In this document: positions 1,525 to 27,481 of the stretch, piece by piece
Numbering within the stretch: the stretch's first letter is position 1
Layout of the letters: every line of letters starts with the position of its first letter
IMG/VR virus record: IMGVR_UViG_3300043331_000441
Span: 32,001 to 96,000 of that record
Strand: one strand, 5' to 3'
DNA: 64,000 bases
Source: a virus
Program-made: the position numbers and the translations under genes
The notes under the pieces: model-generated
The model's database searches: none
What the model was told of the DNA's origin: nothing
The model's input: only the letters and a program-made list of their open reading frames with translations

Positions 1525-1838
1525 TGCGCGAACTAACTCAGCCAGAGCTAGACAAGCTGCTCGGCGACTTCTTCGTCTGTCCGTTCTGCGAATCGGAGGA
1601 GTGGTACGAAGGCCCATCGGGTGGGATGTCGCAGAACGTGTACTGCGCTAATGAGGAGTGCGGCGCAGGCTTCAACGTGATGGGGCCCAAGCCCGTCAAC
1701 GTCGGCGGACAGTTGATCCTTCCGCCGAAGGGAGGCGACCCAGGCCCGGTTCTTACCCTGGTACAGCCAACGGTGGACGAGCCGGAGGTTCGGCTGCCAT
1801 GGTGGAAGCGACTCTTTGCACACCGGCATGAGCCATGA
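1521..1838 (+). CDS. small Zn-finger protein (paralogue of 30014..30310)
   Basis: CPFC...CANEEC; highly similar to the ORF at 30014. Confidence 0.8.
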   Translation: MMRELTQPELDKLLGDFFVCPFCESEEWYEGPSGGMSQNVYCANEECGAGFNVMGPKPVNVGGQLILPPKGGDPGPVLTLVQPTVDEPEVRLPWWKRLFAHRHEP

Positions 1839-2086
1839 GTGGTTGTTCGATCACCATTCGCCACCGAAGAGACGGCCCACGCTATGTCGTGCGCTACCGC
1901 ATAGGCGGACGCGATACGCCGCTCACACACGCGGGATCGTTCAAAACACTCGGCGAAGCAACCCTTCGTCGCGGGCTGATCCTCGACGAGCTGGCAATGG
2001 GGCGCAATCCGGCGTTGATCCTGCGCTCGTTGCAGGACGCAATCGAGGGCAAGACGGTGCCAATGCCTTCTTTGGATCAGAAGTGA
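1835..2086 (+). CDS. small protein resembling a stand-alone integrase arm-type DNA-binding domain
   Basis: YVVRYRIGGR...AGSFKTLGEA pattern; ATGA overlap with the upstream gene. Confidence 0.45.
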   Translation: MSGCSITIRHRRDGPRYVVRYRIGGRDTPLTHAGSFKTLGEATLRRGLILDELAMGRNPALILRSLQDAIEGKTVPMPSLDQK

Positions 2087-20987: not shown

Positions 20988-21773
20988 ATGGGACGCACCG
21001 AAACAAAGCTCACCGCCGGGTGGGTGGTCTGCGGTGCGATCTGGCTGGCATGGGCCGTGTTTGCGTTTGGTGCCAACCAAGCGAAGGACTCGAACTACCG
21101 CGACAAGCTCGACGCCGCAAAGACACAACAGGTGTTCTGGCGCGTCGTGGCAGGAAGAGAACAGGGCAACGAGAGCGGGGTGCTGAACAAGCTCGCGAAC
21201 GATTTACGAGCGACGCCCGCGTCGGAATTGGTCGACTTTCGTGGCGACTCCAACCGGTACGGCGGCATCACAGAGGCTCTCGGCTACGACCCGTTCAATG
21301 GCCCTAACTGCCAGGAATGCGGGCCGCTCGACGACGCAGTCGTAGCGGACGCAATCGAAATCAAGAAGGGTGGGTTGCAGGCGGTGGTGGCACGCCTGCA
21401 ACCTCCCAAGCCAGATCACGTCAGTGGACCACCGCTTGTCCTATGGCTCGTGTGGCTTGTATCGCTGCCGCTTGCGGTCTTCGGTTACAAGCGCTACGCA
21501 CAACACCGCCATGAAGTGAAGTACGGCGAGTACACACAGGAACTCGAACTCGCCGATTCGTTGTCAAGCGCAATGAAGGGCCTGCCCTCACCGCAGGCCG
21601 ACGAGCTGGGCGTCCTTCGCAGCAAGCTGCTGGAAGGAATCGATCAGCGCGTCAAGTACGGAGAAGATGAGGCGAAGCAGATGCGTCTGGCGGCGCTGAA
21701 GGAAGAAGCGCTCGCCACGCTCGAAGCCATTGATGAGGGCAACCGTGTCCTCGCGAAAGGAGAACACCAATGA
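20988..21773 (+). CDS. two-TM membrane protein with cytoplasmic coiled-coil tail
   Basis: Hydrophobic helices near residues 10-30 and 150-170; overlaps the pspA start. Confidence 0.75.
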   Translation: MGRTETKLTAGWVVCGAIWLAWAVFAFGANQAKDSNYRDKLDAAKTQQVFWRVVAGREQGNESGVLNKLANDLRATPASELVDFRGDSNRYGGITEALGYDPFNGPNCQECGPLDDAVVADAIEIKKGGLQAVVARLQPPKPDHVSGPPLVLWLVWLVSLPLAVFGYKRYAQHRHEVKYGEYTQELELADSLSSAMKGLPSPQADELGVLRSKLLEGIDQRVKYGEDEAKQMRLAALKEEALATLEAIDEGNRVLAKGEHQ

Positions 21774-22498
21774 AGCGTCTCAAGTTCATCCTCGCCTCCA
21801 TCTGGAGCGCGTTCCTTGGCAAGAAGGAAGGGCAGTACCACCGGGAGATCCTCGACCTCACCTATGAACAGATGACAGACGGTCTGGTCGAGGTGAAGCG
21901 TGACCTCGCAAACGTCGCGACTGCGAAGCATCGCATCCTGCAGTTGGTCGAGAAGGCACGTACCGAAACGCTCACGTTGGAGAGCAACGCCGTCGGCTTC
22001 CTCAACGCTGGTGACGAGCAGAGCGCACGCGAGAGCCTGGAGCGGAAGGCTGCCGTGTCTCAGCAGCTAGTGCAGCTGGAAAGCCAGGCGGCAGGCATCT
22101 CGATTCGACAGAAGGCGCTGGAAGACAACCAGCGTGAGCTGGAAACGCGCATCTCGGCGTTCAAGGCGGAGAAGGAAGTCATCAAGGCCCGCTACTCGGC
22201 AGCGCAAGCCACGGCGCGGATCGGTGAGACCGTCACCGGGATCAGCAAGGACGCGCGTGAGGCAACGAAGGCCGTGGGTCGGATTACCGAGCAGACGGAG
22301 GAGCTGGAGGCACGTGGCGACGCGCTCTCCGAGCTGATCCAGGGCGGCAGCCTGGAAGACGTGTTCAACCCTGGGCAGTCACCGCTCGACAGGCGGGCGC
22401 TCGAAATGGCGCGCAACGAAGCGGTCGAGAACGATCTCGCGCGGCTGCGTAAGCAGATCGGCCAGGGCACCCCTGCGCCCACGGGTGGTGGCAGCTGA
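21770..22498 (+). CDS. pspA: PspA/IM30 (Vipp1, bacterial ESCRT-III) family protein
   Basis: 242 aa; EILDLTYEQM...A..A...GDEQSARESLERK...KEVIKARYSAAQAT...EELEARGDALSEL pattern. Confidence 0.85.
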   Translation: MKRLKFILASIWSAFLGKKEGQYHREILDLTYEQMTDGLVEVKRDLANVATAKHRILQLVEKARTETLTLESNAVGFLNAGDEQSARESLERKAAVSQQLVQLESQAAGISIRQKALEDNQRELETRISAFKAEKEVIKARYSAAQATARIGETVTGISKDAREATKAVGRITEQTEELEARGDALSELIQGGSLEDVFNPGQSPLDRRALEMARNEAVENDLARLRKQIGQGTPAPTGGGS

Positions 22499-23506: not shown

Positions 23507-23895
23507 TCAAGCCCAACAGCGCCGCCGAGGCAGTCGCACAGGGAGCCCAGTTGCTCGACGAGAAAGAACCTGGCTGGTGGCGCGAAATCGACCTCGGCAC
23601 ACTCGAACTCTCAAGCTGCAAGCGTTGCATCTGCGGGCAGCTTGGCGAAAGAAAGCGGAAATCGTACGAGAGCTATGTGCACGGAACCCTCGACGTGCCC
23701 ATGTACTTCGATGACGCCTGCTACGAGCACGGCCCGTCGTATTACGGTTTCGACTGTCTCTATGAGACCGTCGAAACCGTCGAACCGCTCGCGACATGGG
23801 ATGAACTGGACGCCGAGTGGGAGAAGGTCATCCTTGCCCGACGCGAGGCCGACAAGCTTGTCCCCGCTGAGGAGAGAGAGATGGTGACTACGTGA
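23503..23895 (+). CDS. hypothetical protein
   Basis: AAAGGAGAAC RBS; LELSSCKRCICGQL. Confidence 0.75.
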   Translation: MIKPNSAAEAVAQGAQLLDEKEPGWWREIDLGTLELSSCKRCICGQLGERKRKSYESYVHGTLDVPMYFDDACYEHGPSYYGFDCLYETVETVEPLATWDELDAEWEKVILARREADKLVPAEEREMVTT

Positions 23896-24146
23896 GCCGA
23901 ACCTACATTGTCTTCGGCTCCGACGACAAGCGGAACTGGAAGGACCTCGGCCCGTTCACCGCCGGGGGCGCCCCCCAGGCGATCAAACAGGCAATCGAGA
24001 AGACGCAACACGGACATTACTTCGCGGTTGCCGAAGGAAATATCACGGCGGTCACACCAGAGGTTCAACAGCGCGCACCGATTGTGCGGCTACGGCCGAT
24101 GGCGCGCGGGCAGCTCACAGTGGAAGACGCCCTCAAGGAGTCGTAG
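23892..24146 (+). CDS. hypothetical protein
   Basis: GTGA overlap with the upstream stop. Confidence 0.65.
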   Translation: MSRTYIVFGSDDKRNWKDLGPFTAGGAPQAIKQAIEKTQHGHYFAVAEGNITAVTPEVQQRAPIVRLRPMARGQLTVEDALKES

Positions 24147-24172
24147 GATCGGAGAAAACCTCCGGAGGGAAG

Positions 24173-24682
24173 ATGACCGAGATCGTCCCCGTCCCATCGC
24201 AAGGCATCCAGCTACTCGCCGAGTTAGAGAAGGCGGGGGCGATCACCAACACCGCACTCATCCTCCCACCAGACATACCGTACGAGCAGTGTGAATCACT
24301 CGCGACGATGCTCGGTCAGCTGCACCGCACGTCGCAGTGGCTGATCGGTGATTTGCTCAATCACATCGAACGGGTCTACGGTGAGACGTATGCACAGGCA
24401 GCGGAGGCAACAGGTCTCTCGAAAGGGGCGCTCATGAACTACACCTCTGTCTGCGCGCACATACCGCGCTCACGGCGGCGGCACAACGTGCCGTTCTCAA
24501 CCCACATGGAAGTTGCGTATCTCGAACCGACCGAGCAGGAACGCTGGTTGAGCCAGGCTGCCGCGAATCGGTGGACAAAGGAAGAACTGCGTGCTGCGAG
24601 AAAAGCAGAGGGCAATCACTCGCCAGCGGTAGTAGAATGCGTATGTGCAGCGTGTGGACATGTCCACACGCACACCGCATAA
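24173..24682 (+). CDS. LmbU-family-like DNA-binding regulator
   Basis: QWLIGD...YGETYAQAAEATGL...NYTSV...RRRHNVPFSTHMEVA...QERWLSQA...WTKEELR matches the LmbU pattern. Confidence 0.7.
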   Translation: MTEIVPVPSQGIQLLAELEKAGAITNTALILPPDIPYEQCESLATMLGQLHRTSQWLIGDLLNHIERVYGETYAQAAEATGLSKGALMNYTSVCAHIPRSRRRHNVPFSTHMEVAYLEPTEQERWLSQAAANRWTKEELRAARKAEGNHSPAVVECVCAACGHVHTHTA

Positions 24683-24705
24683 AAGGAGAGCAACAGCAAT
24701 AATAT

Positions 24706-24810
24706 GCGCCCGTAGCTCATTGGTAGAGCACCGGTCTGATTGGCCGGAGGTAAGCGCGAAAGCATAGGTGGGTTCATCGCCACCGAAAGGTTCGATTCCT
24801 GCCGGGCGCT
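24706..24810 (+). ncRNA. tRNA-like RNA 1 (anticodon position GAT) with a 32-nt insert in the T-stem
   Basis: Acceptor GCGCCCG/CGGGCGC, D-arm GCTC/GAGC, anticodon stem CCGGT/GCCGG, T-loop TTCGATT; T-stem GC|insert 24756-24787|AGG pairs CCTGC. Confidence 0.85.
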
Positions 24811-24933
24811 TACGCAAGAGAGCAGCGCACTCTCTAGGGCTGGGAAACGGGAAGCCGAAGCGTGGCAGCGGGGGCGCCCCGCGCAGAAGCCAATCCGTGC
24901 GATGCGGAGCACCGTTTCCCAGTACCGACTTAT

Positions 24934-25086
24934 CGGGATGTAGCTCAGTGGTAGAGCACCGGTCTGATGTACCGGAGGACGCGTCTGAAAAGACATAGGC
25001 ATTCCAGAAGGGCGACGTATTCGCGCTTTTGAGAAGCCGGAGCGAAATACTCCGTAAGCCGAAAGGTTCGAATCCTGCCATCCCGA
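24934..25086 (+). ncRNA. tRNA-like RNA 2 (anticodon position GAT) with an 81-nt insert in the T-stem
   Basis: Acceptor CGGGATG/CATCCCG, D-arm GCTC/GAGC, CCGGT/ACCGG, T-loop TTCGAAT; T-stem GC|insert 24983-25063|AGG pairs CCTGC. Confidence 0.85.
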
Positions 25087-25088
25087 CT

Positions 25089-25550
25089 ATGAAACGACCA
25101 ACACTCATATGGGCACAAGACCTCGGAGAACCCGAGTGCCCCTACGCACGACGCTGGGTTCTCAATCTTGGCTTCGCCAGTATTCGCGTCCACCACTGGG
25201 TCCGCAGCGACGACAAGCGCGCGCCGCATGATCATCCATGGTGGTTTCTGACACTGGTGCTGTCAGGCTCCTACGAGGATTGGGGCTATCCGGAACGCAC
25301 CGCCAAGGGCGCCCCGCGCCTGGATCACAAAACAGTCGATCCGCTCAAACGTGGCAGCGTGCGTTACCGGCCAGCCCATCACATTCACTCGGTGAGCGTC
25401 CCGCCGGGCGGATGCTGGACAGTCCTCCTCACGGGAAGGGAGCGCAAACAGTGGGGATTCTGGACGCGCCGGAAGGATGGCGCTGCGCGTTTTCTGCGTT
25501 CTGCGCGATACTTCTATAAGCACGGGCACCATCCGTGCGATCAGGAATGA
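25089..25550 (+). CDS. cupin-fold protein
   Basis: IRVHHW...PHDHPWWFLTLVLSGSYED...RPAHHIHSV...WTVLLTG...WGFW. Confidence 0.75.
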   Translation: MKRPTLIWAQDLGEPECPYARRWVLNLGFASIRVHHWVRSDDKRAPHDHPWWFLTLVLSGSYEDWGYPERTAKGAPRLDHKTVDPLKRGSVRYRPAHHIHSVSVPPGGCWTVLLTGRERKQWGFWTRRKDGAARFLRSARYFYKHGHHPCDQE

Positions 25551-25864
25551 AAGGAGAACAAGTGAGCGAGAGGCGAGCATTCCCTCACTCGCGCCAGCCG
25601 GTGTGCCCCACTGAATAAAGCCATGGAAGAATGCGACCACGACTGGGATGACGACTTCATGGGCGGTTCAATCTGCCGAAAGTGTCGTACGCATGTCTAA
25701 AAACGTCTTCTGGGAGGGCGTGTCTGCCAAGGATGACCCGCGTCGGTTCAGACGTCCAGTACGGGTGGATGGAAAGAATTGCCGTGACCGTCAACCCTGG
25801 GGAGGATTCACCGACCAGGAGCGATGTGAATGCGTCGGAGAATGCGAGTACGATCGCCGACAGA

Positions 25865-26167
25865 ATGAGGCTTCGTGACCCAGGACTCCTCGCGCTTCTT
25901 TCGCATACGTATGACGAATGCGCATTGTGTGGCACCACACAAAATCTGCACCTGCACCACGTGCTCTACCGCTCGCAAGGAGGTGATGATGTCCGTGGGA
26001 ATATCGTTTGCCTCTGCCGCTCGTGCCATGAAGCAGTTCACCGAGGCGATAAAGCTGCTCTCCACGCACACATCCGCCTCTTCCGGCCAGACGTCGTGGA
26101 ATATCTGCAAGGACGACTAGGTGTAGATGCAGCGAATGCACGTTTAGCGTCCGATGCCTGTGGATAA
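25865..26167 (+). CDS. HNH endonuclease
   Basis: CALCG...LHLHHV...GGDD..GN+VCLCRSCHEAVH. Confidence 0.85.
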   Translation: MRLRDPGLLALLSHTYDECALCGTTQNLHLHHVLYRSQGGDDVRGNIVCLCRSCHEAVHRGDKAALHAHIRLFRPDVVEYLQGRLGVDAANARLASDACG

Positions 26168-26188
26168 CATATCCCCAGGTGATTGTGG

Positions 26189-26509
26189 ATGGCAACAAAG
26201 CTGTACGACAGCCAGCGCTGGCGCGACTACCGTTCGCGCGTTCTCGCAGACGACGCTGAGTGCGCCTTCGCGCGCCTGGCGGGCGACTGCAGCGGCGCGC
26301 TGCAAGTTCATCACGTTGAGCCACTCGCTGACGGTGGGCCACCGTTTCCCGCCAGAGATGGCGTGGTTGTGTTGTGTGTCGCGCACCACAGCTGGCTCCA
26401 CGGCTGGAAGCGACGTAAGAAGCAGACCTGGAAAAGGTGTCCTCATCACCATGTGACGCCCGAAGGGCGTCGCCTGTGTGAACGTAGGCTGAACCGAGTC
26501 GCCGCCTAG
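26189..26509 (+). CDS. HNH endonuclease (terminase-associated gp74-like type)
   Basis: YDSQRWR..R..VL...C......C.....VHHVEPL..GG...VVLCVAHH. Confidence 0.8.
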   Translation: MATKLYDSQRWRDYRSRVLADDAECAFARLAGDCSGALQVHHVEPLADGGPPFPARDGVVVLCVAHHSWLHGWKRRKKQTWKRCPHHHVTPEGRRLCERRLNRVAA

Positions 26510-26539: not shown

Positions 26540-26935
26540 GTGGAAGTTTCCCCGGAGGAAAGGGCATGGGCTGCTGGTCTCTTCGAGGGCGAGGGTTGTC
26601 TTGCATACAGCAACGGACGCCCGCGTCTACAACTCAAGATGATCCATGAGGAAAGCGTTCGACGTGTTCATGCAGCGATTGGGCTTGGCAAGGTGTACGG
26701 GCCGTACGGCCCGTACACCAGCCAATTCGGTAGTAAGCCTGTGTTCATGTGGGTCGTCGACCAAGACGAGGTTGCGGAGGCAATCGAACTCTTGCGTCCC
26801 CATCTGTCAGAGTGGGCCGCCAAACGGCTTGATCGAACTGCGGACGAACGCATCAATGATGTTCCTCGTGCGGTGCGTAAGCCCAAGCGTCGCCGCCCGC
26901 CAGAGAACACAGATGCCGACGACTGGTTGTCATGA
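26540..26935 (+). CDS. LAGLIDADG-family endonuclease-like protein
   Basis: ERAWAAGLFEGEGCL motif, then RLQLKM...IGLGKVY. Confidence 0.75.
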   Translation: MEVSPEERAWAAGLFEGEGCLAYSNGRPRLQLKMIHEESVRRVHAAIGLGKVYGPYGPYTSQFGSKPVFMWVVDQDEVAEAIELLRPHLSEWAAKRLDRTADERINDVPRAVRKPKRRRPPENTDADDWLS

Positions 26936-27409: not shown

Positions 27410-27481
27410 GCCCCGGTCGTTCAGCGGCCAGGATGCCGCCCTGTCGAGGCGGAGACACGGGTTCGATTCCCGTCCGGGGCG
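27410..27481 (+). tRNA. tRNA-Asp (GTC), no encoded CCA
   Basis: Canonical cloverleaf GCCCCGG/CCGGGGC, CCGCC-CT-GTC-GA-GGCGG, ACGGG-TTCGATT-CCCGT, discriminator G. Confidence 0.93.

Follow-up and report, generated by a model that had tools for sequence, protein, structure and literature searches.

The 64,000-nt stretch of DNA analysed here (hereafter the window) comprises bases 32001-96000 of the IMG/VR record IMGVR_UViG_3300043331_000441, the 130,556-bp, 92%-complete genome of a tailed phage in which portal, major head protein and terminase (TerL) were found. TerL is at most 36% identical to that of any cultured phage, the nearest being phages of Proteobacteria; because the relatives of TerL belong to phages of bacteria and because tmRNA and GOLLD RNA occur in related loci (see below), the host is taken to be bacterial. 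Within the window, two tRNA-shaped RNAs, tl1 and tl2, lie in tandem on one strand ahead of a gene that encodes a thiol-dioxygenase-like cupin, and in both RNAs the 5' strand of the T stem is interrupted by a structured insert, which we refer to as cargo (Table 1). The best reading of the data presented below is that tl1 and tl2 are paralogues within a phage-specific, hitherto undescribed family of tRNA look-alikes that heads a cupin operon.

Table 1. Coordinates of the features at the locus and at the corresponding loci of two cultured phages. Model R1 was built from 19 relatives of tl1 and tl2; L numbers denote the loci compared; AF2, AlphaFold2.
Feature	Sequence	Position	Strand	Length	Evidence or remark
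tl1, tRNA-shaped RNA	window	24706..24810	+	105 nt	Rfam tRNA 41.8 bits; model R1 41 bits; every stem paired after insert removal
Cargo of tl1, T-stem 50/51	window	24756..24787	+	32 nt	folds; loop likeness to L096/L097/L101
Long imperfect hairpin, tl1-tl2 spacer	window	24837..24926	+		fold of 24811-24933, -53.1 kcal/mol, z -2.78
tl2, tRNA-shaped RNA	window	24934..25086	+	153 nt	Rfam tRNA 46.5 bits; model R1 43.6 bits; every stem paired after insert removal
Cargo of tl2, T-stem 50/51	window	24983..25063	+	81 nt	folds
Thiol-dioxygenase-like cupin	window	25089..25550	+	153 aa	phrog_4786, AF2 fold, PDB neighbours, invariant His
Two tRNA-shaped RNAs, unannotated	CcrColossus NC_019406 (L116)	1404-1676, 1692-1936			~170-200 nt anticodon-loop cargo; both end ACCA
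tRNA-shaped RNA, unannotated	RHph_Y1_11 MN988558 (L117)	1783 to ~2009			~165 nt anticodon-loop cargo

The Rfam tRNA model RF00005 aligns to tl1 and tl2 over its whole length, with one big insertion in each that falls directly before the T hairpin, and both scores exceed the gathering threshold of 29 bits. Such a score shows a tRNA-like fold, not tRNA function. When the two inserts are deleted, 21/21 cloverleaf pairs form in both copies, with a T stem in which GC and AGG, separated by the split between positions 50 and 51, pair with CCUGC. The 5' halves of the two RNAs are nearly identical. They share the D stem GCUC/GAGC, and their anticodon stems read CCGGU/GCCGG (tl1) and CCGGU/ACCGG (tl2). 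The acceptor stems (GCGCCCG/CGGGCGC in tl1, CGGGAUG/CAUCCCG in tl2) are unrelated in sequence, each being perfectly paired, and the tertiary pair 15-48 changes on both sides, i.e. from U-A in tl1 to G-C in tl2. Since the variable loop that precedes the split has a normal length (5-6 nt), the cargo lies within the T stem and does not represent a long variable arm. Together with a fold z of about -2.6 for each RNA, the compensated acceptor stems, the covarying 15-48 pair and the T-stem-split homologues in four other phage contigs (see below) place the structure beyond chance.

The cargo of tl1 consists, in order, of a GC-GAAA-GC hairpin (P1), the linker AUA, a GGUGG/CCACC hairpin (P2) with the 8-nt loop GUUCAUCG, and GAA. 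In tl2 a GUCU-GAAA-AGAC hairpin is likewise followed by AUA, then by a GGC...GCC stem that holds a long hairpin and a GGAG/CUCC hairpin, by a GUAAG motif and by GAA. A preliminary description of the locus, made from its letters alone, had recognized the two near-canonical cloverleaves that remain after insert removal as well as this common grammar of the inserts, and had argued that the architecture looks selected given that the stems differ in sequence and still pair. These observations hold, the last of them by virtue of complete compensation, the covariation of 15-48 and the existence of homologues elsewhere; the caveat to the grammar is that two GCC triplets compete for the GGC of tl2 at near-equal energy (-29.8 vs -28.6 kcal/mol). 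The insertion point had also been called unambiguous: the split at 50/51 stands in both RNAs, but the 5' boundary of the tl1 cargo may slide within GCGC. MAFFT misaligns the cargo of tl1 and tl2, and pair counts for the T-split RNAs were therefore scripted by hand.

Neither RNA looks like a decoding tRNA. Their anticodon loops are CUGAUUG in tl1 and CUGAUGU in tl2, the discriminators are U (U73) and A, respectively, and CCA is encoded in neither. The contiguous 5-bp T stem of a canonical tRNA-Ile(GAU) is in these RNAs interrupted by 32 or 81 nt, and they also depart from the canonical 7-nt loop with U33 and a purine at 37 (A37 for ANN codons), having U37 in tl1 and G37 with U38 in tl2. The Rfam and ARAGORN searches that the preliminary description had proposed agree with its view of the RNAs: ARAGORN calls neither of them and RF00005, with its internal insertion, is the sole match in Rfam (no other family within 24600-25200 at E<=10). 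Window 24683-24715 comprises a strong Shine-Dalgarno-like sequence, AAGGAGAG, and, 14 nt on, ATG CGC CCG TAG, a 3-codon mini open reading frame that runs over the first bases of tl1.

The product of the downstream gene matches phrog_4786, annotated as 'cysteine dioxygenase', with an E-value of 3e-31 and has no match in Pfam. Its AF2 model (predicted local distance difference test, pLDDT, 95) has a cupin fold, the best PDB folds being ergothioneine, mercaptosuccinate, 3-mercaptopropionate and cysteine dioxygenases, and H47, H49, H98 and H100, among them the histidines of a 3-His metal site, are invariant among the homologues. The N-terminus is backed by homologues as well. The start codon lies 2 nt past the tl2 discriminator (window 25087-25091) and lacks a Shine-Dalgarno sequence; a scan of 23800-26300 for promoters and terminators yielded nothing exceeding shuffles. 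In four related loci (L065, L056, L053 and L051) the cupin ATG is found 0-15 nt past an RNA, spacings which suggest that leaderless mRNAs may arise from tRNA 3' processing. Homologues of the cupin number 227 in metagenomes, whereas none was found in 185,579 species genomes (GTDB). The closest relatives (P0001-P0018) are 59-87% identical.

We compared the genome context of the cupin gene in 49 IMG/VR loci, 13 JGI loci and 2 loci of cultured phages, of which 52 are distinct; the contigs of P0001-P0018 lie outside this set, and the two closest JGI loci (L092 and L093) end at the start of the cupin gene. In 32/52 loci the 700 nt upstream of the cupin contain a tRNA-like gene in the orientation of the cupin, at a distance of no more than 60 nt in 21 of them; the 700 nt downstream contain one in 5/52 loci (Fisher 3e-8). 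The arrangement in the window, with both RNAs on the same strand upstream of the cupin and tl2 only 2 nt away, conforms to that of the family. The upstream genes share a common shell, i.e. an invariant D arm (UAGCUCA..GG.AGAGC), a GGUUCGAnUCC T loop and an acceptor stem that varies in sequence and stays paired; most have A73, and an encoded CCA is frequent. ARAGORN assigns 2- or 4-nt anticodons, CUA, UCA and the like to them, their anticodon loops measure 6-9 nt or contain 10-260 nt of cargo, and U33 is frequently absent. Judged by these features, the cupin-upstream RNAs would not be decoders. The module itself appears to live in islands rich in structured RNA: GOLLD RNAs (L069:1405-1840 and L079:2258-2654; 177 and 193 bits) and a tmRNA (L044:1226-1591; 103 bits) were observed 1-2 kb or less from it.

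Among 19 insert-less relatives 94.7% of the cells pair, compensatory change is seen in 17/21 pairs, a result that 0/500 shuffles match, and 15-48 is G-C or A-U in 16/19. This bears on the notion that the RNAs are decaying pseudo-tRNAs with junk insertions, to which the ARAGORN rejection and the non-standard anticodon loops could be attributed. That notion, already disfavoured, is very improbable given the perfect compensation of stems in the paralogues and in relatives with cupins that are ~50% identical, the conserved insert site and motifs, and the conserved position ahead of the cupin.

Cargo in the family is found at three sites. Besides the T stem, it occupies the anticodon loop in L044 (two RNAs), L051, L073/L089, L091, L084, L103 and L045, and the D loop in L055, L069 and L102. 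Tandem arrays of 2-4 RNAs are present in the window, L043, L044, L053, L084 and L099, and a GAU (or UAC) loop triplet is retained across distant phages. Many phages that are AT-rich or alphaproteobacterial have, between RNA and cupin, a gene for a small amino-methyltransferase, a homologue of which was sought in the phage of the window and not found; in L087 (2535-2978) a RidA / L-PSP family gene (E 4e-22) precedes the cupin in the place of the methyltransferase. The same gene order is found in two cultured phages, namely Caulobacter phage CcrColossus and Rhizobium phage RHph_Y1_11, whose tRNA-shaped RNAs again have cargo in the anticodon loop. In CcrColossus the pair of RNAs occupies a 675-nt 'empty' gap ahead of gp358 (methyltransferase) and gp359 (cupin). 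In RHph_Y1_11 the coding sequence labelled 'putative DNA methyltransferase' (1773-2492) has been given a start that overlaps the RNA and is probably wrong. As tRNA finders miss the RNAs and annotators overlay false coding-sequence starts on them, as in RHph_Y1_11, such genes are systematically invisible in phage genomes.

Big inserts in the 5' strand of the T stem occur, beyond tl1 and tl2, in L048, L096, L097 and L101. The preliminary description had stressed that the insert has the same position in both RNAs; tl1 and tl2 are indeed alike at 50/51, but the inserts of the relatives are found at 51/52 (L096, L097 and L101) or 52/53 (L048), and the position is thus not strictly fixed. All six T-split RNAs have a 7-nt loop of the form NNGAUNN, and the five that are full-length pair perfectly, with four different, fully compensated acceptor stems. 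GAU and A73 are both present in tl2, L048, L096 and L097; L048, L096, L097 and L101 have A33 and so differ from the canonical loop with U33. Two otherwise ordinary tRNA-Ile(GAU)-like genes with A33 for U33 were noted in IMG/VR (L114 and L115), and their loop, CAGAUAA, is that of L101. In the cargo of L048, L096, L097 and L101, a 5' GAAA and a 3' (N)AGUA(A/G) flank a long stem. The loop E / sarcin-ricin (bulged-G) motif has the consensus AGUA opposite GAA between Watson-Crick pairs, which these flanks resemble, with the reservation that a CC-GAAA-GG hairpin is equally possible; tl1 and tl2 have AUA and GAA in place of these flanks. The 8-nt loop of the inner hairpin of the L096-type cargo (GUUGAUCU, GCUGAUCU and GGUAAUUG in L096, L097 and L101) resembles the loop of the second hairpin of tl1. 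Covariation within the cargo is mainly that of one inner hairpin pair (U-A, C-G, U-G), and the sequences of P1 and P2 differ between tl1 and tl2.

About nine relatives without a big insert have a 1-nt bulge at 50/51, 51/52 or 52/53 in the 5' strand of the T stem. In the cupin tree L095, sister of the L096 clade, has such a bulge, and the insert state has at least two origins. Since bulges and inserts fall at the same steps, the T-stem 5' strand would seem to be a hot-spot at which a bulge repeatedly grew into a domain, and since the bulge is found in the insert-less relatives too, the interruption itself, rather than a seamless T stem, looks like the trait. The proposal of the preliminary description that the RNAs belong to a family of T-arm-extended tRNA mimics, for which it named nuclease decoy, T-box ligand and scaffold as candidate roles, is supported as far as the family is concerned. 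What it missed is that the T-stem insert is one variant of a wider phenomenon, which includes relatives with anticodon-loop or D-loop cargo, and that the RNAs are tied to the downstream cupin.

The insert is unlike group I/II introns and unlike archaeal introns of the bulge-helix-bulge (BHB) type, as had been stated before. No BHB motif (two 3-nt bulges, 4-bp helix) exists at the insert junctions of tl1, and the BHB candidates that the other T-split RNAs have within +/-8 nt of their junctions are scattered and non-homologous. In the ten related loci and the cultured phages, none of the introns and ribozymes of Rfam is matched at E<=1. Several candidates were discarded individually. An archaeal virus with a BHB intron is at odds with the bacterial TerL relatives, the tmRNA and GOLLD RNA of related loci and the lack of BHB. 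A group I/II intron has no catalytic core match here, and the inserts measure 32 and 81 nt where some 200 nt or more would be expected; the large cargos that relatives have in the anticodon loop gave no Rfam match to a group I intron either. CUGAUG and CGAAAC strings are reminiscent of a hammerhead, the rest of whose core is absent by reading, and the hammerhead, twister, pistol, hatchet and HDV-like ribozymes of Rfam gave no match.

These results also bear on the alternative of a new minimal intron, which the preliminary description had left open and according to which some unknown activity of host or phage excises the inserts to yield tRNA-Ile(GAU)-like molecules. Excision would restore a perfect 5-bp T stem in 6/6 T-split RNAs, the inserts of the relatives occur at several tRNA positions, like archaeal introns, and 'enigmatic' introns have been published for phage tRNAs (Devoto 2019, PMC6784885). 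We nevertheless hold this alternative to be unlikely. Apart from the lack of BHB motifs and of intron or ribozyme matches, the 92%-complete phage genome contains no RtcB (PF01139), tRNA_int_endo (PF01974) or RNA_ligase (PF09414), and 32 nt is, to our knowledge, below the size of known self-splicing RNAs. In addition, insert-less relatives have a bulge at the very site, and the anticodon loop of the product would still be non-standard (U37 in tl1; no U33 in L048, L096, L097 and L101). If the inserts were spliced all the same, bacteria or their phages would have a new mechanism of tRNA splicing, an outcome that would be equally notable.

Further copies were sought by pattern and by sequence. The DNA patterns CCGAAAGGTTCGANTCCTGCC and GGTAGAGCACCGGTCTGAT found no match in IMG/VR, and the 37 matches of GAAAGGTTCRANTCCTG were every one chance or coding sequence. 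An anticodon-arm pattern matched IMG/VR 11 times (9 coding, 2 ordinary-looking tRNA-Ile-like with A33), a pattern of the L096-type cargo 46 times, the contig of L048 itself being the sole real match, and a search of genome contigs gave 18 matches, all of them chance or half-tRNAs at att sites. Neither blastn of the locus against cultured phages nor the search for related loci with single flanking proteins found anything. In four of the 21 sequencing runs that contain the stretch, all DNA metagenomes of soil, rhizosphere and wetland, the short contigs that are present are identical to the window, and variants or an insert-joined form were found in none of these four.

A quite different explanation, which we regard as possible, if doubtful, is that the RNAs act in cis only, i.e. 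that tRNA shapes punctuate the transcript for RNase P and RNase Z and thereby release a leaderless, stable cupin mRNA, cargo and anticodon arm being near-neutral. Such an action would account for the start codon 2 nt past tl2 without Shine-Dalgarno sequence, for the 0-15 nt spacing in several relatives and for the strict upstream position on the same strand; moreover, the parts that are kept best (D arm, T loop and acceptor pairing) are those that the processing enzymes read. It fits poorly with the tandem arrays of 2-4 RNAs, with the RNA of L048 that lies 360 nt upstream and with the operons in which the RNA precedes the methyltransferase. Likewise, a near-neutral cargo and anticodon arm would not predict the retention of GAU (or UAC) in distant phages or cargo hairpins that stay paired and have loop motifs in common, and the interruption of the T stem is expected to hinder recognition by RNase P.

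The RNAs could also be decoys that attract tRNA-targeting nucleases of the host through their tRNA body and GAU loop, in which case the link with the cupin would reflect incidental co-transcription. Evasion of nucleases by phage tRNAs whose anticodon loops are altered is known, and the conservation of elbow and fixed loop triplet, the loss of decoding features and the restriction of the family to phages (nothing in the 185,579 species genomes) are in line with such a role. The idea leaves the near-obligatory cupin (and methyltransferase) partner in very different phages and the presence of cargo at three different sites unexplained, and beside the RNAs a defence or counter-defence gene was not identified; we consider it quite unlikely.

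The reading that we prefer, and to which we give a probability of roughly 0.55, is that the RNAs are tRNA-shaped but non-decoding, retain their cargo, and have a functional connection with the cupin operon, with which they would be co-transcribed. Their tRNA shell, comprising acceptor stem, D arm, T loop and 15-48, would adopt the L fold and allow RNase P and RNase Z-type enzymes of the host to excise the RNA. The cut after tl2 would also create the 5' end of a near-leaderless cupin mRNA, because the ATG follows 2 nt after tl2 without a Shine-Dalgarno sequence. The cargo, a structured expansion from the T-stem site where bulges recur in the 5' strand, would stay in the mature RNA and form a four-way junction with the two halves of that stem, and the conserved GAU triplet and the cargo may serve as recognition surfaces. 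The region of the T stem that is interrupted here is the one where base pairs set the affinity for EF-Tu.

A number of points weigh against retained cargo and a function in the operon. We infer retention from sequence, and no RNA run is among those listed as containing the stretch; the full cloverleaf-plus-cargo structures lie 3-6 kcal/mol above the unconstrained minimum free energy. That a T stem broken in this way, together with an unusual anticodon loop, would exclude the RNA from EF-Tu and the ribosome is an expectation, as is the idea that the mature RNA may act in trans as substrate, adaptor or regulator partner of the enzyme(s) of the operon. Because the T-split RNAs known are only six, from five contigs, covariation within the cargo is thin, and because the cargo of tl1 and tl2 and that of the L096 type, which have site and GAAA element in common, differ in layout, the homology of the inserts is uncertain. 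The link between RNA and cupin is one of position only; some 20 of the 52 loci have no tRNA-like gene within 700 nt under the model used, and since the RNAs of the cupin operons sit in tRNA-rich islands the adjacency counts are somewhat inflated.

A more specific variant, which we think improbable, takes the RNAs to be carriers or adaptors of an RNA-dependent enzymatic pathway, to which the interrupted T stem and the deformed anticodon loop would deny access to EF-Tu and the ribosome. The substrate of the cupin, and of the methyltransferase if present, would be the RNA or a group esterified to it, the cargo serving to dock the enzyme. The RNAs would keep what a synthetase, CCA addition and processing need, i.e. 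the acceptor stem, A73, GAU/UAC and, often in the relatives, an encoded CCA. If true, phages would encode a tailoring system scaffolded on tRNA, for which no counterpart has been described. If, more generally, the cargo is retained, the RNAs represent a new class of phage non-coding RNA, spread over soil, freshwater and cultured Caulobacter and Rhizobium phages, as well as a natural case of the limits to which a tRNA fold can be decorated, useful for RNA scaffolding, and they would provide a handle on the role of the widespread phage 'cysteine dioxygenase' genes.

Other features of the region include the spacer hairpin between tl1 and tl2, which has a perfect 11-bp base (CUGGGAAACGG/CCGUUUCCCAG) and no counterpart among the related loci, and which may serve in processing or be an additional small RNA. 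Just downstream of the cupin lie two HNH endonuclease genes (25682-26167 and 26540-26935) and, near these, a canonical tRNA-Asp(GUC) (27410-27481), homing-type endonucleases and phage tRNA regions being a familiar pairing. A gene at 21770-22498 encodes a member of the PspA/IM30 family (E 5e-18), a membrane-stress protein that is unusual for a phage.

A T-split shell with a domain inside it, and a family with cargo at three sites on one enzyme operon, are not in Rfam or in the literature searched. Closest among published findings are the tRNA introns of Lak megaphages termed 'enigmatic', where phage tRNA genes are interrupted by conserved sequences through an unknown mechanism (Devoto et al. 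2019, PMC6784885). Those introns are eukaryote-mode tRNAscan calls at the anticodon loop of otherwise decoding tRNAs, and a link to a cupin operon, a T-stem position or a structured-cargo model as seen or proposed for tl1 and tl2 is not reported for them (PMC6784885). Archaeal BHB introns resemble the inserts in that they are short, occur away from 37/38, T arm included, and would upon excision restore a cloverleaf. Unlike them, tl1 and tl2 have neither a BHB nor a relaxed BHB motif, and they belong to a phage that lacks RtcB and a splicing endonuclease and whose host is presumably bacterial. In class II tRNAs (Leu, Ser, Tyr, Sec) an extra helix emerges on the same face, between anticodon arm and T hairpin, and it is there that Infernal places the insert; their arm leaves between 45 and 48, however, and their T stem is a continuous 5 bp, whereas in RNAs of the tl1/tl2 type a covarying 48 is followed by 2-4 T-stem pairs and then by a multi-helix cargo instead of one hairpin.

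YrlA and other bacterial Y RNAs (RF02553), the partners of Ro60, also fuse a tRNA-like D arm, T arm and elbow to another module, and they are common in phages, including this very one, which has Ro60 with an adjoining Y-like RNA. The Ro60 orthologue lies outside the window (genome 113707-115335, minus strand, equal to L039:17707-19335; TROVE and vWA_Ro60, E 1e-41 to 1e-49). The Y-RNA-like gene upstream of it (genome ~116022-116165, minus strand, equal to L040:22-165; z -3.99) consists of a long terminal stem that closes a tRNA-like domain, to which the Rfam tRNA model aligns at positions 6-65 only (53.5 bits), and this YrlA-type module is unmatched by the Rfam YrlA model at gathering score. 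YrlA has a closed acceptor end, and its 5' and 3' termini pair into the stem that binds Ro, whereas tl1 and tl2, which RF02553 does not match, have a free 7-bp acceptor stem, a full anticodon arm and a module inside the T stem, and are located 57 kb from Ro60. In the non-proteinogenic tRNA-Gly of Staphylococcus, a donor for peptidoglycan bridges, the T-stem pairs 49-65 and 51-63 are altered and EF-Tu binding is poor. The T stem of tl1 and tl2 is interrupted in the same region; the changes in tRNA-Gly, by contrast, are base-pair substitutions only, accompanied by normal anticodon loops and proven aminoacylation.

The shells of CcrColossus and RHph_Y1_11 are closer, as they share with the RNAs of the window the cupin family, the upstream same-strand site, the D arm and T loop and the GAU(G/A)A loop motif. 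They differ in having ~155-200 nt of cargo in the anticodon loop and a methyltransferase between RNA and cupin, whereas in the window the anticodon loop has 7 nt, the T stem is the site of the cargo (32 and 81 nt) and no such methyltransferase is present. Mimicry of tRNA as such is well known from tmRNA, viral tRNA-like structures and Y RNAs. What would be new is the display of a folded cargo by a tRNA shell from within the T stem, and a family that combines one shell and three cargo sites with constant attachment to one enzyme operon.

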